From Limisphaerales bacterium (GTDB lineage Bacteria; Verrucomicrobiota; Verrucomicrobiia; Limisphaerales; JAYPXF01), in NCBI GenBank assembly GCA_049601855.1, contig JBMYQZ010000001.1, forward strand, positions 1-30,418: a DNA stretch of 30,418 bases, written 5' to 3'. The notes beneath the pieces are model-generated. The model was not told the origin of the DNA. It was given only the letters and a program-made list of their open reading frames with translations, and made no database searches. This document shows positions 1,041-26,632 of this stretch, in pieces (position 1 is the stretch's first letter; the number at the start of each line of letters is the position of its first letter). Made by a program: the position numbers and the translations under genes.

Positions 1041-2386
1041 CGAAACGGACGCCAGTGATGGGGCACAATCAGGGCCATGGCGGCTGGGCGGTTTTGCGGA
1101 TTCAACGCGTCCTTGAGAATCATGGATTTGACGAACTCAGTCTTTCCGTCCCGATAGGCCGCGACAAACATGGCGGAGAAACGGCTGGCGTCACCGGTGC
1201 CCTGGTAGAGCTGATCATTCGCCGTGGTCGTGACCGATTTGAAAGGCTCAGACACGGTTTTGACCACTTCTTTCGGGATGGCTGATGCCGGTTTCGATTC
1301 TATGTCTTCAGCGGCGCGCTCGGCCTTCAACATCTGGTTGATCTCGACCATGTGTCGGTTTCGTAGATTCTCGTTTCGAACCCAGATGGCGCCCAGGATG
1401 CGCACAATCACAAGCGCGGCGACCACCCATACTTTGCGCTGTGAACGGGGTGCTGAAGGTCGCTCCTCGGCCTTGGTTCCGGCGATGGTCTCCACCAGCG
1501 TTTTCACTTCGCTCACCTGTTGGAAGCGAAGTTCAGGTTTGTTCTCCAAGGTGCGCAGGACTACCTGATCAAGCCGCACATCCACTTCCACCTTTTTCGA
1601 CGGGGCAATCGCTTCCTTCGCCGGGCGCTCGCCGGTGGGCATCTCGTACAGCACGACGCCGAGCGCGTAGATGTCCGTCCGATGATCGGTGCCGCCGTCG
1701 GCTTCGTTTTGTTCCGGAGCCATGTAGGGAGGCGTGCCGGCGACATCGCTGTCCACGCCCAACAGCGCGGCGATTCCGAAGTCGGCGATCTTGATGCGAC
1801 CATCGCGATCCAGGAGCAGGTTTTCCGGCTTGATGTCGCGGTGAACGATTCCCTTGTCGTGTGCGCATTGCAGCGCGTCGCAGATGGGCGGCACGATCGC
1901 GAGTGCCTGCTTCGGTTCGAGTTTTCCGTCCCGCAACAGATCGCGCAGGTTCACCCCATCGACAAACTCCATCACGAGATAAAACAGTCCGCCCGTCTCG
2001 CCGAAGTCATGAATCGTGACGATGTGAGGGTGATTGAGCTGAGCGAGTATTTTTGCCTCCCGGGCAAAGCGTTCGGCAAAGCGCGTCTCACCGGCCCGCT
2101 CCGGCGCCAGGATCTTGATGGCGACCGGACGGTTCAGCGACTTCTGCCGAGCCCGATAGACGACCCCCATGCCCCCACGGCCAAGACATTCGAGGATTTC
2201 AAACTGCGGAAAGCGGTCGGCGATTTCCTCCGGCGTCGGCGGCGGAACACTGCTGGGCTTTCCGCCTTCCGTTTGAATGGTGTGGGAGGCAAGCGCCTGG
2301 CGCATCAGACAGGCCGGGCAAAGCGACTGGGGAGAATCCGCCGGCACGGGTTCACCGCAATCAGGACAGGAAAGAGGATCGTTCAT
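779..2386 (-). CDS. Membrane-anchored Hanks-type Ser/Thr protein kinase (probably frameshifted near 1060-1063; true gene about 345-2386)
   Basis: LGRGGMGVVY (Gly loop), VAIK, HRDIKPEN, DFG, GTPPYMAPE, DIYALG, N-terminal CPDCG...CPAC Cys motif, and hydrophobic VWVVAALVIVRILGAIWV. The tail after MALIVP looks off-frame. Confidence 0.9.
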   Translation of the reverse strand: MNDPLSCPDCGEPVPADSPQSLCPACLMRQALASHTIQTEGGKPSSVPPPTPEEIADRFPQFEILECLGRGGMGVVYRARQKSLNRPVAIKILAPERAGETRFAERFAREAKILAQLNHPHIVTIHDFGETGGLFYLVMEFVDGVNLRDLLRDGKLEPKQALAIVPPICDALQCAHDKGIVHRDIKPENLLLDRDGRIKIADFGIAALLGVDSDVAGTPPYMAPEQNEADGGTDHRTDIYALGVVLYEMPTGERPAKEAIAPSKKVEVDVRLDQVVLRTLENKPELRFQQVSEVKTLVETIAGTKAEERPSAPRSQRKVWVVAALVIVRILGAIWVRNENLRNRHMVEINQMLKAERAAEDIESKPASAIPKEVVKTVSEPFKSVTTTANDQLYQGTGDASRFSAMFVAAYRDGKTEFVKSMILKDALNPQNRPAAMALIVPHHWRPFRWSSMPCWFLRKEVLLIICRTTSSLGASCMRSSYQQLGQPREAERIRSNCKSISRSLRRMAFSTSERSTDRLTNQRKTALVRRWSAW

Positions 2387-2436
2387 AATGTTCTACTTTC
2401 CTCTAAAACGATTCGTTCCATTCGTTACCAGGTTTT

Positions 2437-3168
2437 TTATCCTGCGAGAGCGGCGAAGAGCGACTGCATCTCCTCGGCGATGTTTTCAGGTGAGGAAAGC
2501 GTGCGTTCGATTTCTTCCGTCAGCAAGTGCCGGTAGCGCTTCCGCAGCCGATGAACGGCCACCCGCGCGGCGCCTTCGGTCATCCCGAGTTGGGTGGCGA
2601 TCTTCGCATAAGGGATGCGACTGGAATCCGACGTGAGGCAGGGCTTGAGCGTCGCGAACTGCGCGGCGTTTCCCTCCTCCCGACTGAGTTTCCCAAGTTT
2701 GTCGAGCACCTGTCCCAATAACGTGAGCGCCCACTCGCGATCAAAGAGCTTGTCCGGGTTGCCCGCTTCCGGCGCATCGATCTCCAGGCCATTCTCCGCG
2801 CTTTCCCAATCAAACGAGAGCAGCGGCGTTCCCCCACCGCGTTTCTGACGCGTGCTGCGTTTCCAATCGTTGATCATCCAATGATTAAGACCGGTCAGCA
2901 GGAAGGCCCGGAATTTCCCTTTGTTTTGGTCCACGTCTTTCAGGGCATCGGCGGTCATCAATTGCGCAAAGTAACCCTGCACCAAATCCTCCGCATCCTC
3001 CTTCGATCTGCCCTTCCGTCGGGCGTACCGGTAAAGCGGTTGCCAATAATTGCCGAATAGCGTGCCCAGCGCCTCAATCGCCTCCGAGTCTCCGCCACCG
3101 GCAGCCTCACGGATCAACGTCCATCGAGTGGTGACGAAAAGGGTGTGCCTGGGTTCAATAGAGCTCAT
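2437..3168 (-). CDS. ECF (sigma-70 family) RNA polymerase sigma factor, kinase-associated type
   Basis: FVTTRWTLI N-terminal motif, YWQPLYRYARR, DAEDLVQGYF (region 2), and YAKIATQLGMTEGAARVAVHRLRKRY (region 4 HTH). It lies directly upstream of the kinase. Start taken as ATG 3168; the ORF track gives GTG/ATG 3189. Confidence 0.9.
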   Translation of the reverse strand: MSSIEPRHTLFVTTRWTLIREAAGGGDSEAIEALGTLFGNYWQPLYRYARRKGRSKEDAEDLVQGYFAQLMTADALKDVDQNKGKFRAFLLTGLNHWMINDWKRSTRQKRGGGTPLLSFDWESAENGLEIDAPEAGNPDKLFDREWALTLLGQVLDKLGKLSREEGNAAQFATLKPCLTSDSSRIPYAKIATQLGMTEGAARVAVHRLRKRYRHLLTEEIERTLSSPENIAEEMQSLFAALAG

Positions 3169-16505: not shown

Positions 16506-18353
16506 ATGATCGAAACCCTTACCCAGCTCTTCGGTGACGCCGCGACCTTCGTCTGGACTTACGTCGTCGTTGGTCTGTGCCTCATGGTGGGGCTGTATTG
16601 TACCTTTCGGACCCGCTTCGTTCAGTTCAGTTCATTCATTCACGCGATCGGGTTGCTGGTTGGCAAGTATCCCGAAAGCGAAGATGAGAAGGATGGCATT
16701 ACGACGTTTCAGGCCCTGTCCACCGCACTCTCGAGCACGGTCGGCATCGGCAACATTGCGGGCGTGGCGGTCGCCATTAAGACAGGCGGACCCGGGGCGA
16801 TCTTCTGGATGTGGTTCATGGCGCTCATCGGGATGGCCCTGAAATTTGCTGAAGGAACTTTGGGTAGTCTGTATCGCCAGAAGATCGGCGCGGATGGCGA
16901 GAAGGGTGGCGGTCCGATGTATTACATCACCAAGGGGCTTGGTGAACGTTGGAAACCGGTGGCGGTCTTTTATTCGGTGTGCACCGCCGTCGGTGTTCTC
17001 GGTGCGTGGAACATGTTTCAATCAAACCAGGCCGCCGCCGTGTTACATGACCAGATGTCAGTGCCGCCTTGGGTGACGGGTTTGGTGCTGACCGTCTTTG
17101 CCGGGCTCGTATTGATTGGCGGGATCAAACGGATCGGCACGGTGGCATCCATGATCGTGCCGCCGATGTGCGTGATTTACGTCATCACCGTGATGGTGAT
17201 CTGCGTGATGAACCTGGATCGCATGCCAGCGGTGTTCGGCCTGATCTTTCATGACGCGTTTCAATTCGATTCGGTCGGCGGGGGAGTGTTGGGAACGGCG
17301 GTGTTGATCGGCATTCGTCGAGCGTTGTTCTCGAATGAAGCGGGCACTGGGACGGCCGGTATCGCCCATGCGGCGGCGCACACGGCCCATCCCGTGAGGC
17401 AGGGCATCGTGTCCAGCCTGGGGCCCTTCATCGACACGATCGTCGTCTGCGGTGCGACGGCCTCGGTCATCCTGCTCAGCGGCTTCTACGGGACAGAGAG
17501 TTACCAAAACACGACTGGGACTCGTATGAGCTTCGAGAAATCGGATGGTCTGCTCATTTGGACGGGTGTTCCGGCGGACGAAAGCCCTCTCCAAAGTTTT
17601 ATGGACGGTGAACGCGTTATCGCCGTCTCCGGTACCCAGGTCGAATTTGGTCTCGGCGACCTGGCCCGTACAAACATCAGTGGTGTCATCGGTATCCGAT
17701 TATCCGCCTGGTACGAAAAGTTGGTCCCGGAGATCATTCTTCGAGACGACAGCTCGCGAGAAGTCTTGTCGGGCGCAGACGGGATCGAAGGTGTTACGCC
17801 TCCCCGGCAGTGGGGATCCTGGGTCATGAAACTCGAGGACGATTGGTTGCAACGATTCGCGGATGATACGAAAGCTGACAACCTCAAGCTGGTCGTCGAT
17901 GCCGGCGCCAGTGGCCAAGTTTATCTCGATCGCGTGGAATTGGTTTCGCAAGCCAATGGCATCGTCCTCTCCACCGCGGCCTTCTCCAAGTTCTTCGGCG
18001 TCTTCGCCAGCTTTTTCATTCCCATCGCCGCGCTGCTCTTTGCCTACAGCACGGTGATCGCGGGGAACTACTACGGCGAGGTCTCCTGCCACTACCTGAG
18101 CGAGAAACTCGTGAAGCCCTACCTCTGGCTCTACATCATCGCGACCTACCTTGGCTGCGCGGTCAACCTCGACATCGTGATCAACTTTTCGGATCTCACC
18201 GTCGGCTTGATGGCTCTCCCAAACCTGATCGCTGTCGCGCTGCTCCTTCCCATCGTGATCCGACAAACACGGGATTACTTCGGTGGCCAGGGACAGGAGA
18301 CCAAACGAGCTGATGCAGTATCTGAAGCAGGCAAACCAGACGACGCAAGCTGA
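16506..18353 (+). CDS. Alanine/glycine:cation symporter (AGCS family) with a ~155-aa inserted soluble domain
   Basis: FQALSTALSSTVGIGNIAGVA, GGPGAIFWMW, GGPMYYI, LIGGIKRIG, FSNEAGTGTA, FIDTIVVC, LFAYST and MALPNLIA. A hydrophilic insert lies at about 17490-17954. Confidence 0.93.
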   Translation: MIETLTQLFGDAATFVWTYVVVGLCLMVGLYCTFRTRFVQFSSFIHAIGLLVGKYPESEDEKDGITTFQALSTALSSTVGIGNIAGVAVAIKTGGPGAIFWMWFMALIGMALKFAEGTLGSLYRQKIGADGEKGGGPMYYITKGLGERWKPVAVFYSVCTAVGVLGAWNMFQSNQAAAVLHDQMSVPPWVTGLVLTVFAGLVLIGGIKRIGTVASMIVPPMCVIYVITVMVICVMNLDRMPAVFGLIFHDAFQFDSVGGGVLGTAVLIGIRRALFSNEAGTGTAGIAHAAAHTAHPVRQGIVSSLGPFIDTIVVCGATASVILLSGFYGTESYQNTTGTRMSFEKSDGLLIWTGVPADESPLQSFMDGERVIAVSGTQVEFGLGDLARTNISGVIGIRLSAWYEKLVPEIILRDDSSREVLSGADGIEGVTPPRQWGSWVMKLEDDWLQRFADDTKADNLKLVVDAGASGQVYLDRVELVSQANGIVLSTAAFSKFFGVFASFFIPIAALLFAYSTVIAGNYYGEVSCHYLSEKLVKPYLWLYIIATYLGCAVNLDIVINFSDLTVGLMALPNLIAVALLLPIVIRQTRDYFGGQGQETKRADAVSEAGKPDDAS

Positions 18354-19620
18354 AGACGCGAGTGTCATCGACACCGTCAGAGCGATGCTCGAGCGCATCG
18401 CGAATGAAGGTGAGGCGGCGGCGGCTGCGTACGCGCGTGAATTCGATGATTGGGAAGGTGATGTCGTGCTCCCACCGGAGAAACGTGCGCGTCTCATCGA
18501 AGAGGTTCCGCAACAGCTGAGGGACGATATCGATTTTGCGCATCAGCAGGTCCGGTGTTTTGCCCAAGCACAACGCGACAGCCAGCAGGAATTTGAAAAG
18601 GAGATTTCGCCCGGTGTGCTCCTGGGCCAACGACTGGTGCCGGTTCAATGCGCGGGATGTTACGTCCCCGGCGGACGCTACGCGCACGTGGCTTCGGCCT
18701 TGATGAGCGTCGCCACCGCCAAGGTGGCCGGGGTGCCCAGGGTGGTGGCCTGTTCACCGCCGCATGAAGGAAGCATTCATCCCGCGATCGTTTACGCGAT
18801 GGATCGCGCGGGCGCCGATGTCATTCTGGAACTGGGCGGGTTGCAGGCGGTGGCCGCCATGGCGCACGGCTTCTTCACAGGTTGGAAGGCCGATATCCTC
18901 GTCGGGCCGGGCAATGCCCACGTGGCTGAAGCCAAGCGGCAGCTGTTCGGTGAAGTCGGTATCGATGTCGTTGCCGGTCCGACGGAAACCGCCATCATCG
19001 CCGATGAAGGCGCGGATGCGATGACCATCGCGGTGGATCTTGTCTCCCAGGCCGAGCATGGCCCGACCTCGCCGGCCTGGTTGTTTACGACGAGCAAGGA
19101 GTTGGGCGAAAAGACGATGTGTATGATCCCACAAGTCGCCGGCGACCTGCCCAATCACGAGGTGATTCGCCGCGCTTGGGAGGACTTCGGCGAAGTGGTG
19201 TTGTGCGATGATCGCGAGGAAGTTGTGACCCTCAGCGATCGCTACGCGCCGGAACATTTGCAGGTGATGGCGGCGGATGAAGATTGGTGGCTGCAACGAT
19301 TGAGCAACTACGGTTCGCTGTTCCTGGGCGAAGGCGCCACGGTCACTCATGGGGACAAGTGTTCGGGCACCAATCATATCCTTCCCACCCGCCGAGCGGC
19401 CCGCTACAGCGGCGGGTTGAACGTGCAGAAGTTCATGAAGATTCTCACCTATCAGCGAATCAGCCCGGCAGCGAATGAGACCATCAGTGCCGTTGCCTCC
19501 CGCATTTCCCGGGCGGAAGGAATGGAGGCTCACGCTCGCGCCTGTGATTGGCGGCTGCGAAAATTCTTTCCCAACCAGGACTGGGATTTCCCGGTGCACG
19601 ATCAAGAGCGATACGATTGA
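18313..19620 (+). CDS. HisD-fold NAD-dependent dehydrogenase of the HpsN (sulfopropanediol 3-dehydrogenase)-like subfamily
   Basis: Start ATG 18313 (MQYLKQA). Motifs GCYVPGGRYAH, VGPGN, GIDVVAGPTE, SQAEH, PEHL, GDKCSGTNHILPT and EGMEAHAR. GRYAH, GDK and the short YLK.A N-terminus match HpsN as I recall it, rather than biosynthetic HisD (GDY). Confidence 0.85.
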   Translation: MQYLKQANQTTQAEDASVIDTVRAMLERIANEGEAAAAAYAREFDDWEGDVVLPPEKRARLIEEVPQQLRDDIDFAHQQVRCFAQAQRDSQQEFEKEISPGVLLGQRLVPVQCAGCYVPGGRYAHVASALMSVATAKVAGVPRVVACSPPHEGSIHPAIVYAMDRAGADVILELGGLQAVAAMAHGFFTGWKADILVGPGNAHVAEAKRQLFGEVGIDVVAGPTETAIIADEGADAMTIAVDLVSQAEHGPTSPAWLFTTSKELGEKTMCMIPQVAGDLPNHEVIRRAWEDFGEVVLCDDREEVVTLSDRYAPEHLQVMAADEDWWLQRLSNYGSLFLGEGATVTHGDKCSGTNHILPTRRAARYSGGLNVQKFMKILTYQRISPAANETISAVASRISRAEGMEAHARACDWRLRKFFPNQDWDFPVHDQERYD

Positions 19621-20798
19621 AAACCTTCACCAAATCGTTCACCCAACAGGAACCGATTCCCGAGGTCGGCATCGAACGCGCGGTCGAACTGATGCGCAGC
19701 GGCCGCCTGCATCGCTACGATCGCGATCCGGGTGACGACGGTGAGGTCGGCCGATTGGAACGCGAGTTTGCCGGCTTCATTGGTGTTCCCTTCTGTCTCG
19801 CCTGCGCCTCCGGCGGCTACGCCATTCACATTGCCCTGCGCGCTGCCGGCGTGAAGACCGATGATACCGTACTGACGAACGCCTTCACTTTGGCCCCTGT
19901 GCCCGGAGCCATTCACAACAGTGGTGCGCGTCCAGTTTTCGTCGAGATGACCGACGATCTCTGCATCGATCTTAAACACTTGGATCGAATGGCCAGCGAG
20001 AGCCGCTCTCGTTTTCTTCTGCTCTCTCATATGCGCGGACACATGGCCGATATGGATCGCGTGCTGGAGATCTGCCAACGTCACGATCTTTTTCTCATTG
20101 AAGACTGCGCCCACACCATGGGGGCGTCATGGAATGGTCGCCCGAGCGGCAGCGACGCCGACATCGCCTGCTTCAGCACGCAGACCTACAAACACATCAA
20201 CTCTGGCGAAGGCGGGCTGCTCACCACGCGTCACAGCGAGATCATGGCCCGGGCGGTGATGTTGTCCGGTTCCTACATGCTTTACGATCGTCACCCGGCC
20301 GGCCCTCCGGATGAGGAGTATCGGGACATTCGTCTGCAAACCCCCAACCTCAGTGGGCGCATGGACCATTTGCGAGCCGCGATCCTGAGACCGCAATTGG
20401 CCGACCTGCCGGAGCGCTGCAAGCGCTGGAACGAACGGTATGAAACGTTGGCGACTCGACTCTCCAGTATGTCCGGCTTGCACATTCCTGAAAGAAAGCC
20501 GGAAGAACAATTCGTTGGCAGTTCCCTTCAGTTCTCCCTGCCTGATCTCAACGGTGAATCGATTGCCCGGTTTATCCGCACCTGCGCCGAGCGCGGCGTG
20601 GTGATCAAATGGTTCGGAGACCCCGAACCACACGGCTACACCAGTCGCTACGACAGCTGGCGCTATCTTGAAGAAACGCCGGACCTGCCCCAGACCGATC
20701 GGATCTGCAACACACTCTGCGACCTCCGCATTCCACTCACATTCACGGAAGAGGATTGCCAGCTGATCGTGGAGATCATCAGTGAGGAATTGAAATGA
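19617..20798 (+). CDS. DegT/DnrJ/EryC1/StrS-family PLP-dependent enzyme
   Basis: TTG start overlapping the upstream TGA (TTGA). Motifs SGRLHRY, ASGGYAI, EDCAH, and FSTQTYKHINSGEGG (PLP Lys). Confidence 0.9.
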   Translation: MKTFTKSFTQQEPIPEVGIERAVELMRSGRLHRYDRDPGDDGEVGRLEREFAGFIGVPFCLACASGGYAIHIALRAAGVKTDDTVLTNAFTLAPVPGAIHNSGARPVFVEMTDDLCIDLKHLDRMASESRSRFLLLSHMRGHMADMDRVLEICQRHDLFLIEDCAHTMGASWNGRPSGSDADIACFSTQTYKHINSGEGGLLTTRHSEIMARAVMLSGSYMLYDRHPAGPPDEEYRDIRLQTPNLSGRMDHLRAAILRPQLADLPERCKRWNERYETLATRLSSMSGLHIPERKPEEQFVGSSLQFSLPDLNGESIARFIRTCAERGVVIKWFGDPEPHGYTSRYDSWRYLEETPDLPQTDRICNTLCDLRIPLTFTEEDCQLIVEIISEELK

Positions 20799-21235
20799 GC
20801 GACGAAGATCCACACGACTTGCAACGATTTGTCAGCGCCCAGGAGCACGCCTACGAAACCGCGTTGAAGGAACTGCGCCGGGGTCGCAAGACCTCGCATT
20901 GGATCTGGTACATCTTTCCCCAAGTGGCCGGGTTGGGATTCAGCCCGACCTCGCAGCAGTATGCCATCCAGAGTCGCGCTGAAGGTCTGGCGTACCTGGA
21001 GCATGAATTGCTCGGTCCTCGCCTGAAGGAATGTACGCAGGCGCTTCTGAATCTGGGTTCCCGGCGCATCACCGACGTCATGGGCAAACCGGATGATTTG
21101 AAACTGAAATCATCCATGACCTTGTTTGCGGAAATCTCAGATGCCCCGATCTTTGAACAGGTTTTGAAGCGTTTTTACGGCGACCGACGGGACGACCTGA
21201 CGCTGGAGTTCCTGAAGTCCGAAGCCGGGAATTGA
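20795..21235 (+). CDS. DUF1810 family protein
   Basis: DLQRFVSAQ, ELRRGRKTSHWIWYIFPQ, YLEHELLGPRL, and DDLKLKSSMTLF; ATGA overlap with the upstream gene. Confidence 0.88.
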   Translation: MSDEDPHDLQRFVSAQEHAYETALKELRRGRKTSHWIWYIFPQVAGLGFSPTSQQYAIQSRAEGLAYLEHELLGPRLKECTQALLNLGSRRITDVMGKPDDLKLKSSMTLFAEISDAPIFEQVLKRFYGDRRDDLTLEFLKSEAGN

Positions 21236-22969: not shown

Positions 22970-24715
22970 CTACCGACAGACCTCGGTGAGAATCTCCAGC
23001 ATTCGTCGATTGGTCGCGGCATCCTTCACCGCCAGGCGAATCATCCGGTCTTCCATGGCCGTCCCCATCGTACTGACGTTACGTAGAAAGAGACCGTGTT
23101 GACGGCTCGCTTGTACGACCATGTCCGCCTTGGGTCCTTTTTTCGGAAGCTCGCAAAGGAGGAAGTTCGCGATGCCGGGAACGATCCGCCAACCCAGTGA
23201 TTTGAGGCCGTTTGCCATGGATGCCCGCAGCTCATGCGTCTCACGGTATCTCGCGCGATAATGATCGGGAGATGCGAGCGCTTTGACCGCGGCCACCTGC
23301 GAGGGAAGTCCCACGACCCAGGGCGGTGTGATGGCACGAAGACCTTCCAGTTGGTGGGCGGCGGAGCAAAGATACGCCACTCGTGCACCGCTGAGCGCGT
23401 AGACCTTCGACATTGATTTGCAGACGATCACATTGACTGAGGCGGCCGCAATCGACTCCAAGGATTCCCCTTCTCCCGCGTACTCGACGTAGGTTTCATC
23501 GATCCAGATGCGGGTGGTCGAAGGAGCCGAGCGAAGGGCCGACAGCAGTTCTCGGCGCGGGACATGCCGACCTGTGGGGCTGTTGGGATTCACGAGCACG
23601 ACCAGGTCATACGCGTCGCGTAGGGCAACTCTCAAGCGGTCGAGATTCACTTCGTAGTCATCTTCTGCCGACAAGGTCAGGCGGTCCACCGTGCAACCGA
23701 TCACCTTCTCAAGGACGTGCGCGTATTCGCCATAGGTCGGGTCAAGAATCAGGACGTGTGACTCCGGCCGCAACCAGTGGCGCAAGGCCCGGAAGATCAG
23801 ATCGGACGAACCGGCTCCCGGCAGGATGTTGGCGGGTTGCACGCCTCGGGCTTCTGCGATGGCTCTGATAAGTCCGGCACAGTCGGTTGGCGGAGAGGTT
23901 CGCAGCAGCCAGTCCAGATTGGCAGTGAGCACCTCGGTGACCGCTGGGGCGGGAGGAAACCAGGCATCCAGGACGTCGGCGTTGATGACGTCATGCCGGC
24001 GTTCAAGATCGGAAAAATCTTCCCCGATGGATTTGAAGAACGCGCCGCCGTGAAAACATCTTGCCGGTTGGCGAAAACCCATCGGCAGACGCCAGCGGAT
24101 CTGCTCCTCCATCCGCGTCAGCAATCCGCCGAACTCCTGGGTGTGGCGACGGAGTTCCTCGACCGAGGCATGCATCAGTTCATAGCACACACGGCCGGAA
24201 GTGGTCGTGCGACCCGTGGCTCGCATCCCACAGCGTTGATACAGACGCATGATTTCGCGACGACCGATGCCAATGATTCGATTTCCGCCATCTGCTTCCA
24301 CCCAGCGCAGAGCCGCATACATGAGCAACCCTGCCAACTCCGTGCCGCGACAGGAGTCTATGACGGTCAACAGCCGCACCTCATAGACCGCCTCGCCGGC
24401 TTGTACGGGCAACTCGTTCCGCGGGAAATATTTGTCGATTGAAAATCGCGGGGCGGAAGGTGGTGTGATGCTCACGAATCCCGCCATTGTTTCACCGGCC
24501 TTCACGACCAGATACGCGTTCCATTCGTCAATCTCGTCGCAAAGTCTCTCCTCCGCATTGTCCGGATGCTGCCCCAGCTCGCGTGAGTACACTTCATGAC
24601 GCAGCCGATAGATCGCCTCACGGTCTTCGGCGGTTGCCAGCGAGACTTCGTAGGGCGAATATTGCCTGTGACGGCTGGGCACGGACGAGGAATCGACCGC
24701 GGATGCTGCTTTCAT
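22970..24715 (-). CDS. Fusion of a GNAT acyltransferase (FeeM/OlsB/LuxI-like) and a class I/II PLP enzyme (HisC/CobD-like)
   Basis: N-domain: IYRLRHEVY, DEIDEWNAYLVV, YEVRLLTV. C-domain: FHGG, PGAGSSDLIF, PTYGEY, LVNPNSPTG, IDETY, and KSMSKVYALSGARVAY (PLP Lys). Confidence 0.88.
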   Translation of the reverse strand: MKAASAVDSSSVPSRHRQYSPYEVSLATAEDREAIYRLRHEVYSRELGQHPDNAEERLCDEIDEWNAYLVVKAGETMAGFVSITPPSAPRFSIDKYFPRNELPVQAGEAVYEVRLLTVIDSCRGTELAGLLMYAALRWVEADGGNRIIGIGRREIMRLYQRCGMRATGRTTTSGRVCYELMHASVEELRRHTQEFGGLLTRMEEQIRWRLPMGFRQPARCFHGGAFFKSIGEDFSDLERRHDVINADVLDAWFPPAPAVTEVLTANLDWLLRTSPPTDCAGLIRAIAEARGVQPANILPGAGSSDLIFRALRHWLRPESHVLILDPTYGEYAHVLEKVIGCTVDRLTLSAEDDYEVNLDRLRVALRDAYDLVVLVNPNSPTGRHVPRRELLSALRSAPSTTRIWIDETYVEYAGEGESLESIAAASVNVIVCKSMSKVYALSGARVAYLCSAAHQLEGLRAITPPWVVGLPSQVAAVKALASPDHYRARYRETHELRASMANGLKSLGWRIVPGIANFLLCELPKKGPKADMVVQASRQHGLFLRNVSTMGTAMEDRMIRLAVKDAATNRRMLEILTEVCR

Positions 24716-24844
24716 GACTGCAACCTAGCCACGCGCGATCAGACCCGTAAATCGATTAACTCGATGACACCTTCACTCAAACCGATGTCAGTCGGTGGTG
24801 GACTTTGCTTTCGAACGAATCGGGTAGTTGCTATCTATCCCTCC

Positions 24845-26632
24845 ATGCGCCGTTCAATTCCGATCTGCCTCATTCTTGCCCTGTGCCTCGCCTTCACACA
24901 GCAAATCGCAGCTCAAAGACCGAACGTGATCGTCTTCCTCACCGACGACCAGGGTTGGGGGGATCTGAGTATCAATGGAAACTCCAACCTCTCAACGCCC
25001 AACGTCGATTCACTCGCCCGCGATGGGGCGATGTTTGAGAACTTCTACGTCTGTGCCGTGTGTGCGCCGACGCGGGCGGAGTTTTTGACCGGGCGCTATC
25101 ATCCACGCACCGGAGTCAGTGGTGTCAGCACGGGCCAAGGGCGTTTGAACATCGACGAGACCACGATCGCGGATGTGTTCAAGTCCGCCGGCTACGCCAC
25201 GGGCGCCTTCGGCAAATGGCACAACGGTACGCAATCGCCCTATCATCCCAACGATCGCGGCTTCGACGAATACTACGGCTTCACGTCCGGCCACTGGGGC
25301 CACTACTTCAGCCCGCCCCTGGATCACAACGGGAAGAAAGTCCGCGGCAAGGGTTACGTTGTCGACGACTTCACCGACCATGCGCTCGACTTCATCGACG
25401 AGGTAACAACGAAGAACCAGGAACAAAGAACGAAGAACCCTTTCTTCATTTACCTTCCGTACAACACGCCTCACTCGCCCATGATGATCGGCGACAAGTT
25501 CTACAATAAATTCAAGGAACTCGATCCCGCCATGAAACATCGCGACCCGAAGAAGGAGGACGTGATGATGACCCGCGCCGCGTTGGCCATGTGCGAGAAT
25601 ATCGACTGGAACGTCGGTCGCGTGCTCAAGAAGCTCGACGAACTCAAACTGCGCGACGACACGATCGTGCTCTACTTCTGCGACAACGGTCCGAACTCGT
25701 GGCGTTGGAACGCCGGCATGAAGGGCCGCAAGAGTTCGGTCGACGAAGGCGGACTGCGTTCCCCACTCCACATCCGTTGGCCCGCGAAGATCAAGCCCGG
25801 CACCAAGGTCGCGCAGGTCACCGCCGCCATCGATCTGCTGCCTACCCTGGCTGGCATGGCAGGAATCACCTCGAAGCCGGCGAAGCCGCTGGACGGTCGC
25901 AGCTTTGCAAGGCTCTTGTTCAATGATGCAGCCAAGTTGCCCGCCCGCGATCTATTCAGCGTCTGGCGCAAGAGGTCAACCGTTCGCACGGAACGCTTCC
26001 GCCTGGATTCCGTCGGCAGGCTCTACGACATCCGCCATGATCGGGGACAGAACAAGGACGTTTCCCGGAAGCACCCCCGGGAAACCGCCCGCCTCCGCAA
26101 AGCCTTGGCCCAACACAAGCAGGAGATGGACGTGTTGAACCAACGGTTTGCCGATCGCCCCTTCACCGTTGGTTACGCCAAGTCCACCACGCTCCCCGCC
26201 CGTGACGGTGTTCCGCATGGAACGATCCAACGCAGTTCCAAAGCGCCGAACAACTCCTTCTTCAAAAACTGGACCAGCACCGACGACTCCATCACCTGGG
26301 ACATCGAAGTCGGCCGGGAAGGCATGTACGACGCGACCGTCTACTACACCTGCGCCAAGGGTGACGTCGGTTCGCATATGCTCCTCCACGCCGATGGAGA
26401 CCGGGCCGACTCAATCGAACAAGTCGTCAGCAAAGCCTTCGACCCGCCCCTCTACAACAAGTCCAAGGAACGTGTGGAGAAGTCGCACTACTTCGTGAAA
26501 GACTTCAAACCCCTGAAGATGGACGGTCCCATCAAACTCGAAAAAGGTCGGGCTCTCCTCCGCCTCCGTGTGCTGCAGATCACGGGCGAACAGGCGATCG
26601 ACGTGCATTCGGTTGAACTGGTCAGGAAGTAG
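24845..26632 (+). CDS. Secreted S1 sulfatase with C-terminal beta-sandwich domain
   Basis: Start ATG 24845 (MRRSIPICLILAL), PNVIVFLTDDQGW, CAPTR, FGKWH, CDNG, and DEGGLRSP. Confidence 0.95.
   Translation: MRRSIPICLILALCLAFTQQIAAQRPNVIVFLTDDQGWGDLSINGNSNLSTPNVDSLARDGAMFENFYVCAVCAPTRAEFLTGRYHPRTGVSGVSTGQGRLNIDETTIADVFKSAGYATGAFGKWHNGTQSPYHPNDRGFDEYYGFTSGHWGHYFSPPLDHNGKKVRGKGYVVDDFTDHALDFIDEVTTKNQEQRTKNPFFIYLPYNTPHSPMMIGDKFYNKFKELDPAMKHRDPKKEDVMMTRAALAMCENIDWNVGRVLKKLDELKLRDDTIVLYFCDNGPNSWRWNAGMKGRKSSVDEGGLRSPLHIRWPAKIKPGTKVAQVTAAIDLLPTLAGMAGITSKPAKPLDGRSFARLLFNDAAKLPARDLFSVWRKRSTVRTERFRLDSVGRLYDIRHDRGQNKDVSRKHPRETARLRKALAQHKQEMDVLNQRFADRPFTVGYAKSTTLPARDGVPHGTIQRSSKAPNNSFFKNWTSTDDSITWDIEVGREGMYDATVYYTCAKGDVGSHMLLHADGDRADSIEQVVSKAFDPPLYNKSKERVEKSHYFVKDFKPLKMDGPIKLEKGRALLRLRVLQITGEQAIDVHSVELVRK
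25408..25438 (+). repeat. Tandem heptamer repeat inside the sulfatase CDS
   Basis: AACGAAG AACCAGG AACAAAG AACGAAG AAC, translated as TKNQEQRTKN. Confidence 0.7.

Follow-up and report, generated by a model that had tools for sequence, protein, structure and literature searches.

What does a bacterium make with a protein that joins an N-acyltransferase to a pyridoxal 5'-phosphate (PLP) enzyme? The question is raised by one gene in a 30,418-nucleotide stretch of DNA from a Limisphaerales bacterium (contig JBMYQZ010000001.1; the whole stretch is called the window below). The gene, at 22970-24715 on the minus strand, encodes a protein of 581 amino acids (aa) with an N-terminal GNAT domain of the FeeM/AHL-synthase type (AHL, N-acyl-homoserine lactone) and a C-terminal PLP domain of the HisC/CobD superfamily. 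Our answer, held with moderate confidence, is that this fusion protein is a two-step N-acyl amino-alcohol(-phosphate) synthase, in which the PLP domain would make serinol phosphate or phosphoethanolamine and the GNAT domain would N-acylate it.

A conserved fusion of two domains

An earlier note on this DNA, made from the letters alone, had described the gene product as a stand-alone 581-aa two-domain protein, and the list of open reading frames (ORFs), the translation, the Pfam matches and the positions of the neighbouring genes all bear this out. The ORF begins with ATG, includes its stop codon (22970-22972) and is translated without an internal stop. With a word-indexed homologue search, whose matches lie at 60-88% identity, we retrieved more than 120 full-length homologues, every one of them with both domains; a chance ORF or an assembly chimera is therefore ruled out. 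The names of the homologues agree with a marine origin of the source genome. Mean column identity is 66% in a 34-sequence alignment of the fusion protein, with long invariant blocks in both halves, and by this alignment both domains are intact and strongly constrained. The three motifs quoted in the note are present and invariant in the 34 homologues, and their codon coordinates were verified on the minus strand: YEVRL, with E112 (24380-24382), HGG, residues 222-224 (24044-24052), and SMSK, with K437 (23405-23407).

The PLP domain as a third branch beside HisC and CobD

The PLP domain (aa 263-581; 22973-23929, minus strand) has the type I fold of the HisC/CobD superfamily, as assigned from Pfam, NCBIfam, a tree, and sequence, profile and fold matches in the PDB. 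The reading of the C-terminal half as a HisC/CobD-type PLP enzyme with a CobD-like HGG thus held up in hidden Markov model (HMM) searches, fold comparison and residue conservation. Aminotran_1_2 (PF00155), one of three models for which the earlier note had proposed HMM searches, matches aa 273-574 with 116.9 bits (E 1.5e-33), above its gathering cut-off of 19.7 bits. The Schiff-base lysine K437 (in KSMSKVY), D406 at the pyridine nitrogen, and S434, S436 and R445 at the cofactor phosphate are invariant and align with the corresponding columns of CobD and HisC, K437 falling on the PLP lysine of CobD (SLTKFY) and of HisC (TFSKIY). Further invariant residues on the PLP side in the 34 homologues are H222, G223, G224, Y409, R545 and R560; K437, D406, R445, R545 and R560 are predicted to be catalytic. 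Between the two domains lie a linker and the N-terminal arm of the PLP domain (aa 211-262; 23930-24085, minus strand), recognized by invariant alignment columns that include CFHGG and the block INADVLDAWFPP.

Among PDB sequences, the best matches of the PLP domain are SMUL_1544 (6oux, 1.5e-23) and CobD (1lc5, 3e-22), followed by HisC proteins; a profile of 26 family members found 3ftb (2.8e-42), CobD (3.4e-39), 6oux (9e-39) and HisC proteins from 1e-32. The full-length model, with a predicted local distance difference test score (pLDDT) of 81.7, superposes best on CobD 1lc7 (template modelling score 0.90 on the target), HisC structures being close behind.

By name and by model rank, the PLP domain might be taken for a housekeeping HisC or CobD enzyme whose GNAT domain is merely regulatory or a relic. 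Where homologues bear a database name (Opitutus sp. GAS368, Opitutaceae, Limisphaerales), it is 'histidinol-phosphate aminotransferase family protein', and CobD and HisC lead the NCBIfam matches. Both of these scores, however, lie at least 100 bits under the curated cut-offs (CobD TIGR01140, 176.4 bits against 290.55; HisC TIGR01141, 173 bits against 276.55). We discarded the rank of CobD as top NCBIfam match as evidence, because it does not discriminate: the true HisC proteins of the phylum reach about 190-220 bits on the CobD model. The ranking of the two models is unreliable for annotation.

The genomes themselves also speak against a housekeeping role. A bona fide hisC, scoring 344 bits, lies elsewhere in the source genome (contig C568). 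The enzyme that consumes the product of CobD is CbiB (PF03186), which was found neither in the source genome, 83.7% complete in 982 contigs, nor in five carrier genomes that are 99-100% complete, so that aminopropanol phosphate would have no consumer there; each of these five has a normal HisC and lacks a true CobD. A tree was built from 14 fusion PLP domains, 12 CobD, 11 HisC and 5 HisC-like 'AT2' proteins, all from genomes of the phylum (one extra HisC row, a shadow frame on a long branch, was ignored in the tree and omitted from the column comparison below). In it, the fusion PLP domains form a clade of their own (support 99), separate from CobD (97) and from HisC plus AT2 (95). The predicted catalytic residues of the GNAT domain, moreover, are invariant. 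HisC and CobD housekeeping roles are excluded for the PLP domain, and we give this reading, largely refuted as it is, almost no credence.

The columns that distinguish the clades show a mixed pattern. Fusion and CobD proteins have in common the N-terminal HGG arm (verrucomicrobial CobD proteins also begin with HGG), a P-W motif, a longer C-terminal loop and an R(V/I)AV(K/R) block, while fusion and HisC proteins have in common DE.Y, which is DE.F in CobD. Found in the fusions alone are TSPP for (R)YP, GAGSSD for GNGS.E, PNSPTG for PNNPTG, and the INADVLDAWFPP block. R545 and R560 align with two conserved C-terminal arginines of CobD, which we take to be the phosphate-binding Arg323 and Arg337. 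Judged by these residues, the PLP domain looks catalytically competent and built for an anionic, probably phosphorylated substrate; the tree and the column comparison place it on a third branch, next to HisC and CobD.

The true CobD matches in Verrucomicrobiota (L054-L067; for example G022:C19:15331-16332) lie within open frames of 843-1120 aa, whose length suggests that CobD is itself fused to another protein there.

The same columns bear on a different function, that of an N-acyl amino acid synthase. Its PLP domain would be an amino-acid aminotransferase, for example an aromatic one, making tyrosine, phenylalanine or another amino acid from the keto acid for FeeM-like acylation. The HisC family includes aromatic and phenylalanine aminotransferases, 4r2n is among the PDB matches, DE.Y is an aminotransferase-type motif, and the two conserved arginines could accommodate either a carboxylate or a phosphate. 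FeeM itself, whose fold matches that of the GNAT domain best, acylates the amino acid tyrosine. It is the phospho-substrate decarboxylases, however, and not the HisC and AT2 clades, that share an HGG arm, a P-W motif and the C-terminal block with the PLP domain, which lies outside those clades. Free amino acids are also abundant, so a dedicated transaminase fusion would be of little benefit. We consider such a synthase unlikely, although it is the strongest of the competing explanations.

The GNAT domain and its acyl acceptor

The GNAT domain (aa 21-210; 24086-24655, minus strand) is matched on aa 34-176 by three Pfam models, FeeM (26.7 bits), Acetyltransf_1 (25.1 bits) and Acetyltransf_5 (23.6 bits). 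The last of these was the second model named for a search in the earlier note; the third, Autoind_synth (PF00765, the LuxI synthases), has no match in the fusion protein. Over the GNAT domains of 36 family members, Acetyltransf_1 matches 35, Acetyltransf_5 26, FeeM 24 (best E 1.8e-11) and Autoind_synth 4, weakly (best E 1.6e-05); FeeM is the best Pfam family across this clade.

Modelled alone with the 36 sequences, the GNAT domain reached a pLDDT of 95. We compared this model with 48,161 PDB representatives in a fold search independent of Foldseek. The top match was FeeM (2g0b; Z 17.9 over 173 residues), followed by the AHL synthases RpaI, TofI, MesI and LasI (Z 16.6-17.8 over 168-187 residues; RpaI, 17.8 over 187), whereas ordinary GNATs that use acetyl-coenzyme A (acetyl-CoA) stayed at Z 16.3 or less, a small margin in Z, with only about 140 residues aligned. 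Foldseek agrees, its top matches being BjaI, RpaI and MesI. The sole PDB sequence match of the GNAT domain, a weak one, is RpaI; it aligns R39, Y43, E46, D60, D63 and E112, all invariant in the fusion family, with conserved residues of RpaI. E112 and R114, both predicted to be catalytic, lie on the central strand (YEVRLLTV) and are invariant in both the 34- and the 36-sequence sets; E112, aligned with a conserved glutamate of RpaI, is the predicted catalytic general base. The pyrophosphate loop of acetyl-CoA GNATs, Q/R-x-x-G-x-G/A, is not kept: the protein has R123-G-T-E-L-A128 (family consensus RGRELA), with Glu at the position of the first Gly. In sequence and modelled fold, the GNAT domain belongs to the FeeM/LuxI/OlsB branch, by a modest margin over ordinary GNATs, and the earlier note's assignment of the N-terminal half to a FeeM/LuxI-type GNAT is borne out by HMM searches, fold comparison and residue conservation.

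The likeness to AHL synthases raises the possibility of a LuxI-like signal synthase, in which the GNAT domain would acylate S-adenosylmethionine (SAM) or a related amino acid, modified beforehand by the PLP domain, to give a new diffusible autoinducer. AHL synthases are among the best fold matches, R39, Y43, D60, D63 and E112 align with conserved residues of RpaI, and Autoind_synth matches, besides the four members mentioned, 25% of a Bacteroidota sister cluster. The signature tryptophan of AHL synthases, on the other hand, is absent (the RpaI alignment has a gap, then Q49, there). The fusion protein itself has no Autoind_synth match, the PLP domain is nearest to phospho-substrate enzymes, and no LuxR-type or dedicated sensor gene recurs in the Pfam annotation of the window or in the neighbour-family clustering of related loci. 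An autoinducer synthase of this kind appears quite improbable.

Two other matches to the FeeM model in the source genome (G000:C290:1582-2013(+) and G000:C494:812-1093(+)) lie in open frames of 242 and 294 aa, which may encode OlsB- or NAS-like acyltransferases.

Genomic context

In order to find partner genes, we took the 80 best species-level loci and clustered their neighbouring proteins all-against-all. Opitutus sp. GAS368 and other Opitutales have the order LplT-like major facilitator superfamily (MFS) gene, Aas-like acyltransferase plus AMP-binding gene, small membrane protein gene, fusion gene, alpha/beta hydrolase gene and arylamine N-acetyltransferase gene. An Aas-like gene lies within 6 kb of the fusion gene in 14 of the 80 loci, nine of which have the MFS gene too; more distant lineages with other gene orders (L118, L129, L143 and L165) are among them. 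In E. coli, Aas makes acyl-acyl carrier protein (acyl-ACP) and acylates position 1 of the 2-acyl-lysophospholipids imported by LplT. The Aas neighbour, as identified from sequence in a minority of loci, fits an acyl-ACP-dependent N-acyl synthase and a lipid product.

The source genome has an Aas orthologue (56% identity) at G000:C276:5749-7209(+), which runs into the end of its contig.

This linkage also bears on the acyl donor. The GNAT domain could instead cap the PLP-made amine from acetyl-CoA or a short acyl-CoA, and a soluble pathway would then yield an amino alcohol bearing an N-acetyl or short acyl group (an osmolyte, a detoxification product or a precursor). Such a donor would suit Acetyltransf_1, which matches most members, and the top Foldseek matches, which are CoA-dependent and use short or aromatic acyl groups; the protein has no membrane segment and, within the window, no lipid gene lies nearby. 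What tells against it is the loss of the canonical acetyl-CoA loop, the longer FeeM/AHL-synthase build of about 180-190 residues and the recurrent Aas/LplT neighbour, which points to long-chain acyl-ACP chemistry. We rate a soluble short-acyl product slightly below the amino acid synthase, and so also as unlikely.

Beyond the Aas/MFS and radical-SAM genes, nothing recurs above chance in the 80 loci, and no neighbour is universal. The radical-SAM genes, which encode a B12-binding radical-SAM protein with DUF4070, occur in four loci, where they immediately precede the fusion gene and share its strand (L048:4041-5384(-), L049:978-2732(+), L153:4506-5840(+) and L157:4578-5879(+)). Since most loci have no conserved partner gene, the substrates should be ubiquitous metabolites. 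In the window and around the closest relatives of the fusion gene (85%, 78% and 70% identity), no conserved functional neighbour was found; the window contributes no context of its own to the family.

Several candidate partners were considered and rejected. The sulfatase, found in nine loci, is explained by the abundance of sulfatases in these genomes, and neighbours of 280 and 218 aa are kept only in close relatives, through synteny. A link to a cysteinolate operon (16506-21235), by which the PLP domain might decarboxylate cysteate to taurine or form cysteinolate for acylation, was rejected as a general explanation because the operon is not beside the gene in the 85%, 78% and 70% relatives and the fusion family is common in genomes from soil and fresh water.

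The operon in question, of the symporter/HpsN/DegT type, lies 2 kb from the fusion gene. The matching region of L022, L024 and L025, relatives with synteny on the sulfatase/RNase R side, lacks it, and we therefore read the 21.2-22.9 kb junction as a rearrangement point.

Proposed function

The earlier note had suggested that the PLP domain makes an amine and the GNAT domain acylates it. This remains the best-supported reading, with housekeeping roles excluded and Aas nearby in some of the loci, and it is one that we infer. The bifunctional enzyme, probably dimeric, would form an N-acylated amino alcohol from central metabolites without a partner gene. In the first step, a small primary amine carrying a phosphate would be formed by the C-terminal PLP domain. 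This amine would be serinol phosphate if dihydroxyacetone phosphate (DHAP) is transaminated in the manner of HisC, or phosphoethanolamine if O-phospho-L-serine is decarboxylated in the manner of CobD; because the residue pattern is mixed, we make no choice between the two. The phosphate would be held by His222 of the HGG arm and by Arg545 and Arg560. In the second step, the FeeM-like GNAT domain would acylate this amine, taking the chain from acyl-ACP (or acyl-CoA) and using Glu112 as the base. Because PLP enzymes depend on a free amine, N-acylation would have to follow the PLP step. The GNAT domain ends about 12 residues ahead of the HGG arm. Since this arm lies over the active site in CobD, the acyltransferase would be anchored at the entrance to the PLP site. 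Products would be N-acyl serinol phosphate, N-acyl phosphoethanolamine or, once dephosphorylated, the free amino-alcohol amide, serving as a membrane lipid precursor or a lipid signal.

Several observations weigh against this proposal. The FeeM (PF21926) score is marginal against the 27-bit cut-off: 26.7 bits for the full-length protein, 29.4 for the domain alone and 29.8 in the genome scan. D60 and D63, invariant in the acceptor region, align with the Asp pair of the AHL synthases and are awkward for a phosphorylated acceptor. TSPP and PNSPTG depart from positions that contact the cofactor in HisC and CobD, so that another catalysis may be possible. The predicted template modelling score of the full-length model is 0.64, which does not fix the interdomain geometry. 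Finally, the Aas neighbour is present neither in the window nor in 66 of the 80 loci.

N-acyl serinol phosphate would be an amide-linked analogue of 2-acyl-lysophosphatidic acid, and the Aas-type enzyme, encoded next to the fusion in Opitutales and some other lineages and by an orthologue elsewhere in the source genome, might esterify its free hydroxyl to give a serinol-based, glycerol-free analogue of phosphatidic acid. This extension is speculative and we think it improbable; if true, Verrucomicrobiota would have a so far undescribed class of membrane phospholipids with amide linkages, and this compound would be its entry point.

The gene in its window

The first 20 residues (24656-24715, minus strand) form a variable leader, poorly conserved in the alignment, and residues 1-19 have a pLDDT below 50. 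A divergent sulfatase gene lies upstream of the fusion gene, and a convergent, unannotated gene of 321 aa lies downstream. The longest sulfatase ORF starts at 24596 on the plus strand, and 120 nt of its extension (24596-24845) coincide with the 5' end of the fusion gene. Translation of the sulfatase, however, almost certainly begins at the ATG at 24845, with the signal peptide MRRSIPICLILALCLAF. With the start placed there, a 129-bp intergenic region (24716-24844) separates the two divergent genes, and this is presumed to be the promoter region. A consensus scan found no convincing sigma-70 site in it, and the scan for consensus promoters and terminators gave nothing beyond chance level.

Distribution and significance of the family

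Two invariant peptides, INADVLDA and CFHGGAFF, served as probes in a scan of prokaryotic genomes in which each species was represented by one genome. This identified 457 loci encoding a relative of the fusion, in nearly all cases from Verrucomicrobiota, and the count of at least 457 species-level genomes is a lower bound. Cultured carriers of the gene include Oceaniferula spumae NT6N, Verrucomicrobium sp. BvORR034 and BvORR106, and Opitutus sp. GAS368. Genomes from soil and fresh water commonly carry the family. When 400 genomes of the phylum were sampled evenly, about 10 close orthologues turned up, so that the distribution in the phylum is patchy.

An exhaustive HMMER search with the GNAT half as query retrieved 689 representatives, among them fusions with as little as 34% identity as well as GNATs of about 200 aa that stand alone. 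Stand-alone homologues of this size (P0242, P0278, P0200 and P0204; L026:4619-5233(+)) have 32-37% identity to the GNAT half and no adjoining PLP gene; at L026, the sole locus of this type that was inspected, a BTAD/MalT-type regulator gene and a GT87 gene are also present. In the protein atlas, sister clusters with GNAT and Aminotran_1_2 domains come from Bacteroidota, Actinomycetota, Saccharimonadota, Thermoplasmatota and Bacillota. The phylum also has a second type of fusion, of a FeeM-like GNAT and a class V aminotransferase, 535-546 aa long (L017:409-2016(-) and L018:1459-3099(+)); at L017, a plsY (G3P_acyltransf) gene (2020-2619(-)) lies 3 nt upstream of it.

The family is large and mis-annotated, since current annotation assigns the gene to histidine biosynthesis. 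Aminolipid reviews of 2024 and 2026 make no mention of such a fusion, and neither 'aminotransferase' nor 'serinol' occurs in their text. If the proposed function is true, a single gene would enable the carriers, at least 457 at species level, to produce an N-acyl amino-alcohol lipid or signal. The closest case on record is a gut-commensal gene, the product of which acts on human GPR119. Were abundant marine, freshwater and soil bacteria to share its logic, this chemistry would reach beyond host signalling to environmental membranes or signalling. For enzymology, the reaction specificity of the PLP domain is of interest, since this third branch is uncharacterised. The cultured carriers make the question directly testable.

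Comparison with known systems

For the GNAT domain, the best folds are those of FeeM (2g0b), an N-acyl tyrosine synthase from soil environmental DNA, and of the AHL synthases RpaI (6wn0), TofI (3p2h), LasI (1ro5) and BjaI (5w8c). RpaI and the GNAT domain have a common R..Y..E / D..D / E-x-R signature. These proteins, however, show only 11-19% identity, stand alone without a PLP domain, and acylate a preformed amino acid or SAM.

The top PDB matches of the PLP domain, with E values from 1.5e-23 to 3e-39, are CobD of S. enterica (1lc5/1lc7), an L-threonine-O-3-phosphate decarboxylase, and SMUL_1544 (6oux), which resembles threonine-phosphate decarboxylase and is presumably an L-serine-O-phosphate decarboxylase. 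Both have the HGG arm, the P-W motif, the two C-terminal arginines and the R(V/I)AV block. CobD differs in having DE.F, YP and PNNPTG where the fusion, in its separate clade, has DE.Y, TSPP and PNSPTG, and no CbiB was found in the carriers examined. HisC has the same fold and superfamily, DE.Y, and the PLP Lys, Asp and Arg residues, and its chemistry, from a 2-oxo phosphoester to an amino phosphoester, is a model for the conversion of DHAP to serinol phosphate. Unlike a true HisC, the fusion falls short of the cut-off (173 against 276 bits), lies outside the HisC clade and has a separate hisC in its genome.

Both candidate reactions for forming the amine are documented, on ubiquitous phosphorylated metabolites. 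In Campylobacter jejuni, Cj1437 is a transaminase that converts DHAP to (S)-serinol phosphate and Cj1436 a decarboxylase that converts L-serine phosphate to ethanolamine phosphate (PMC11800397). RtxA from Bradyrhizobium has an N-terminal domain that is a DHAP aminotransferase, which makes serinol phosphate from DHAP (PMC3222319). The likeness to these three enzymes is one of reaction; none of them has an N-acyltransferase attached, and the amines that they make are used for a capsule sugar or for rhizobitoxine.

A precedent for fusing an N-acyltransferase to a second enzyme of one lipid pathway is OlsF, a bifunctional ornithine-lipid synthase in which a PF13444-type N-acyltransferase is joined to an O-acyltransferase (PMC12971839). 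Its partner domain, in contrast to the one described here, is an acyltransferase and not a PLP enzyme, and its head group is a ready-made amino acid.

The human-microbiome N-acyl serinol synthase (hm-NAS) of Gemella haemolysans is reportedly a NAS domain fused to an aminotransferase, an architecture that the earlier note also gives for gut N-acyl-serinol synthases and that would follow a like two-step logic. In E. coli, a host without serinol of its own, a single Gemella nas gene led to N-oleoyl or N-palmitoyl serinol (PMC13012048). One gene thus suffices for an N-acyl amino alcohol, as we propose for the fusion, and by this analogy, which is drawn from the description of the product, Gemella nas is the nearest documented system. 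The two differ in their hosts, a Bacillota commensal in the one case and environmental Verrucomicrobiota in the other.

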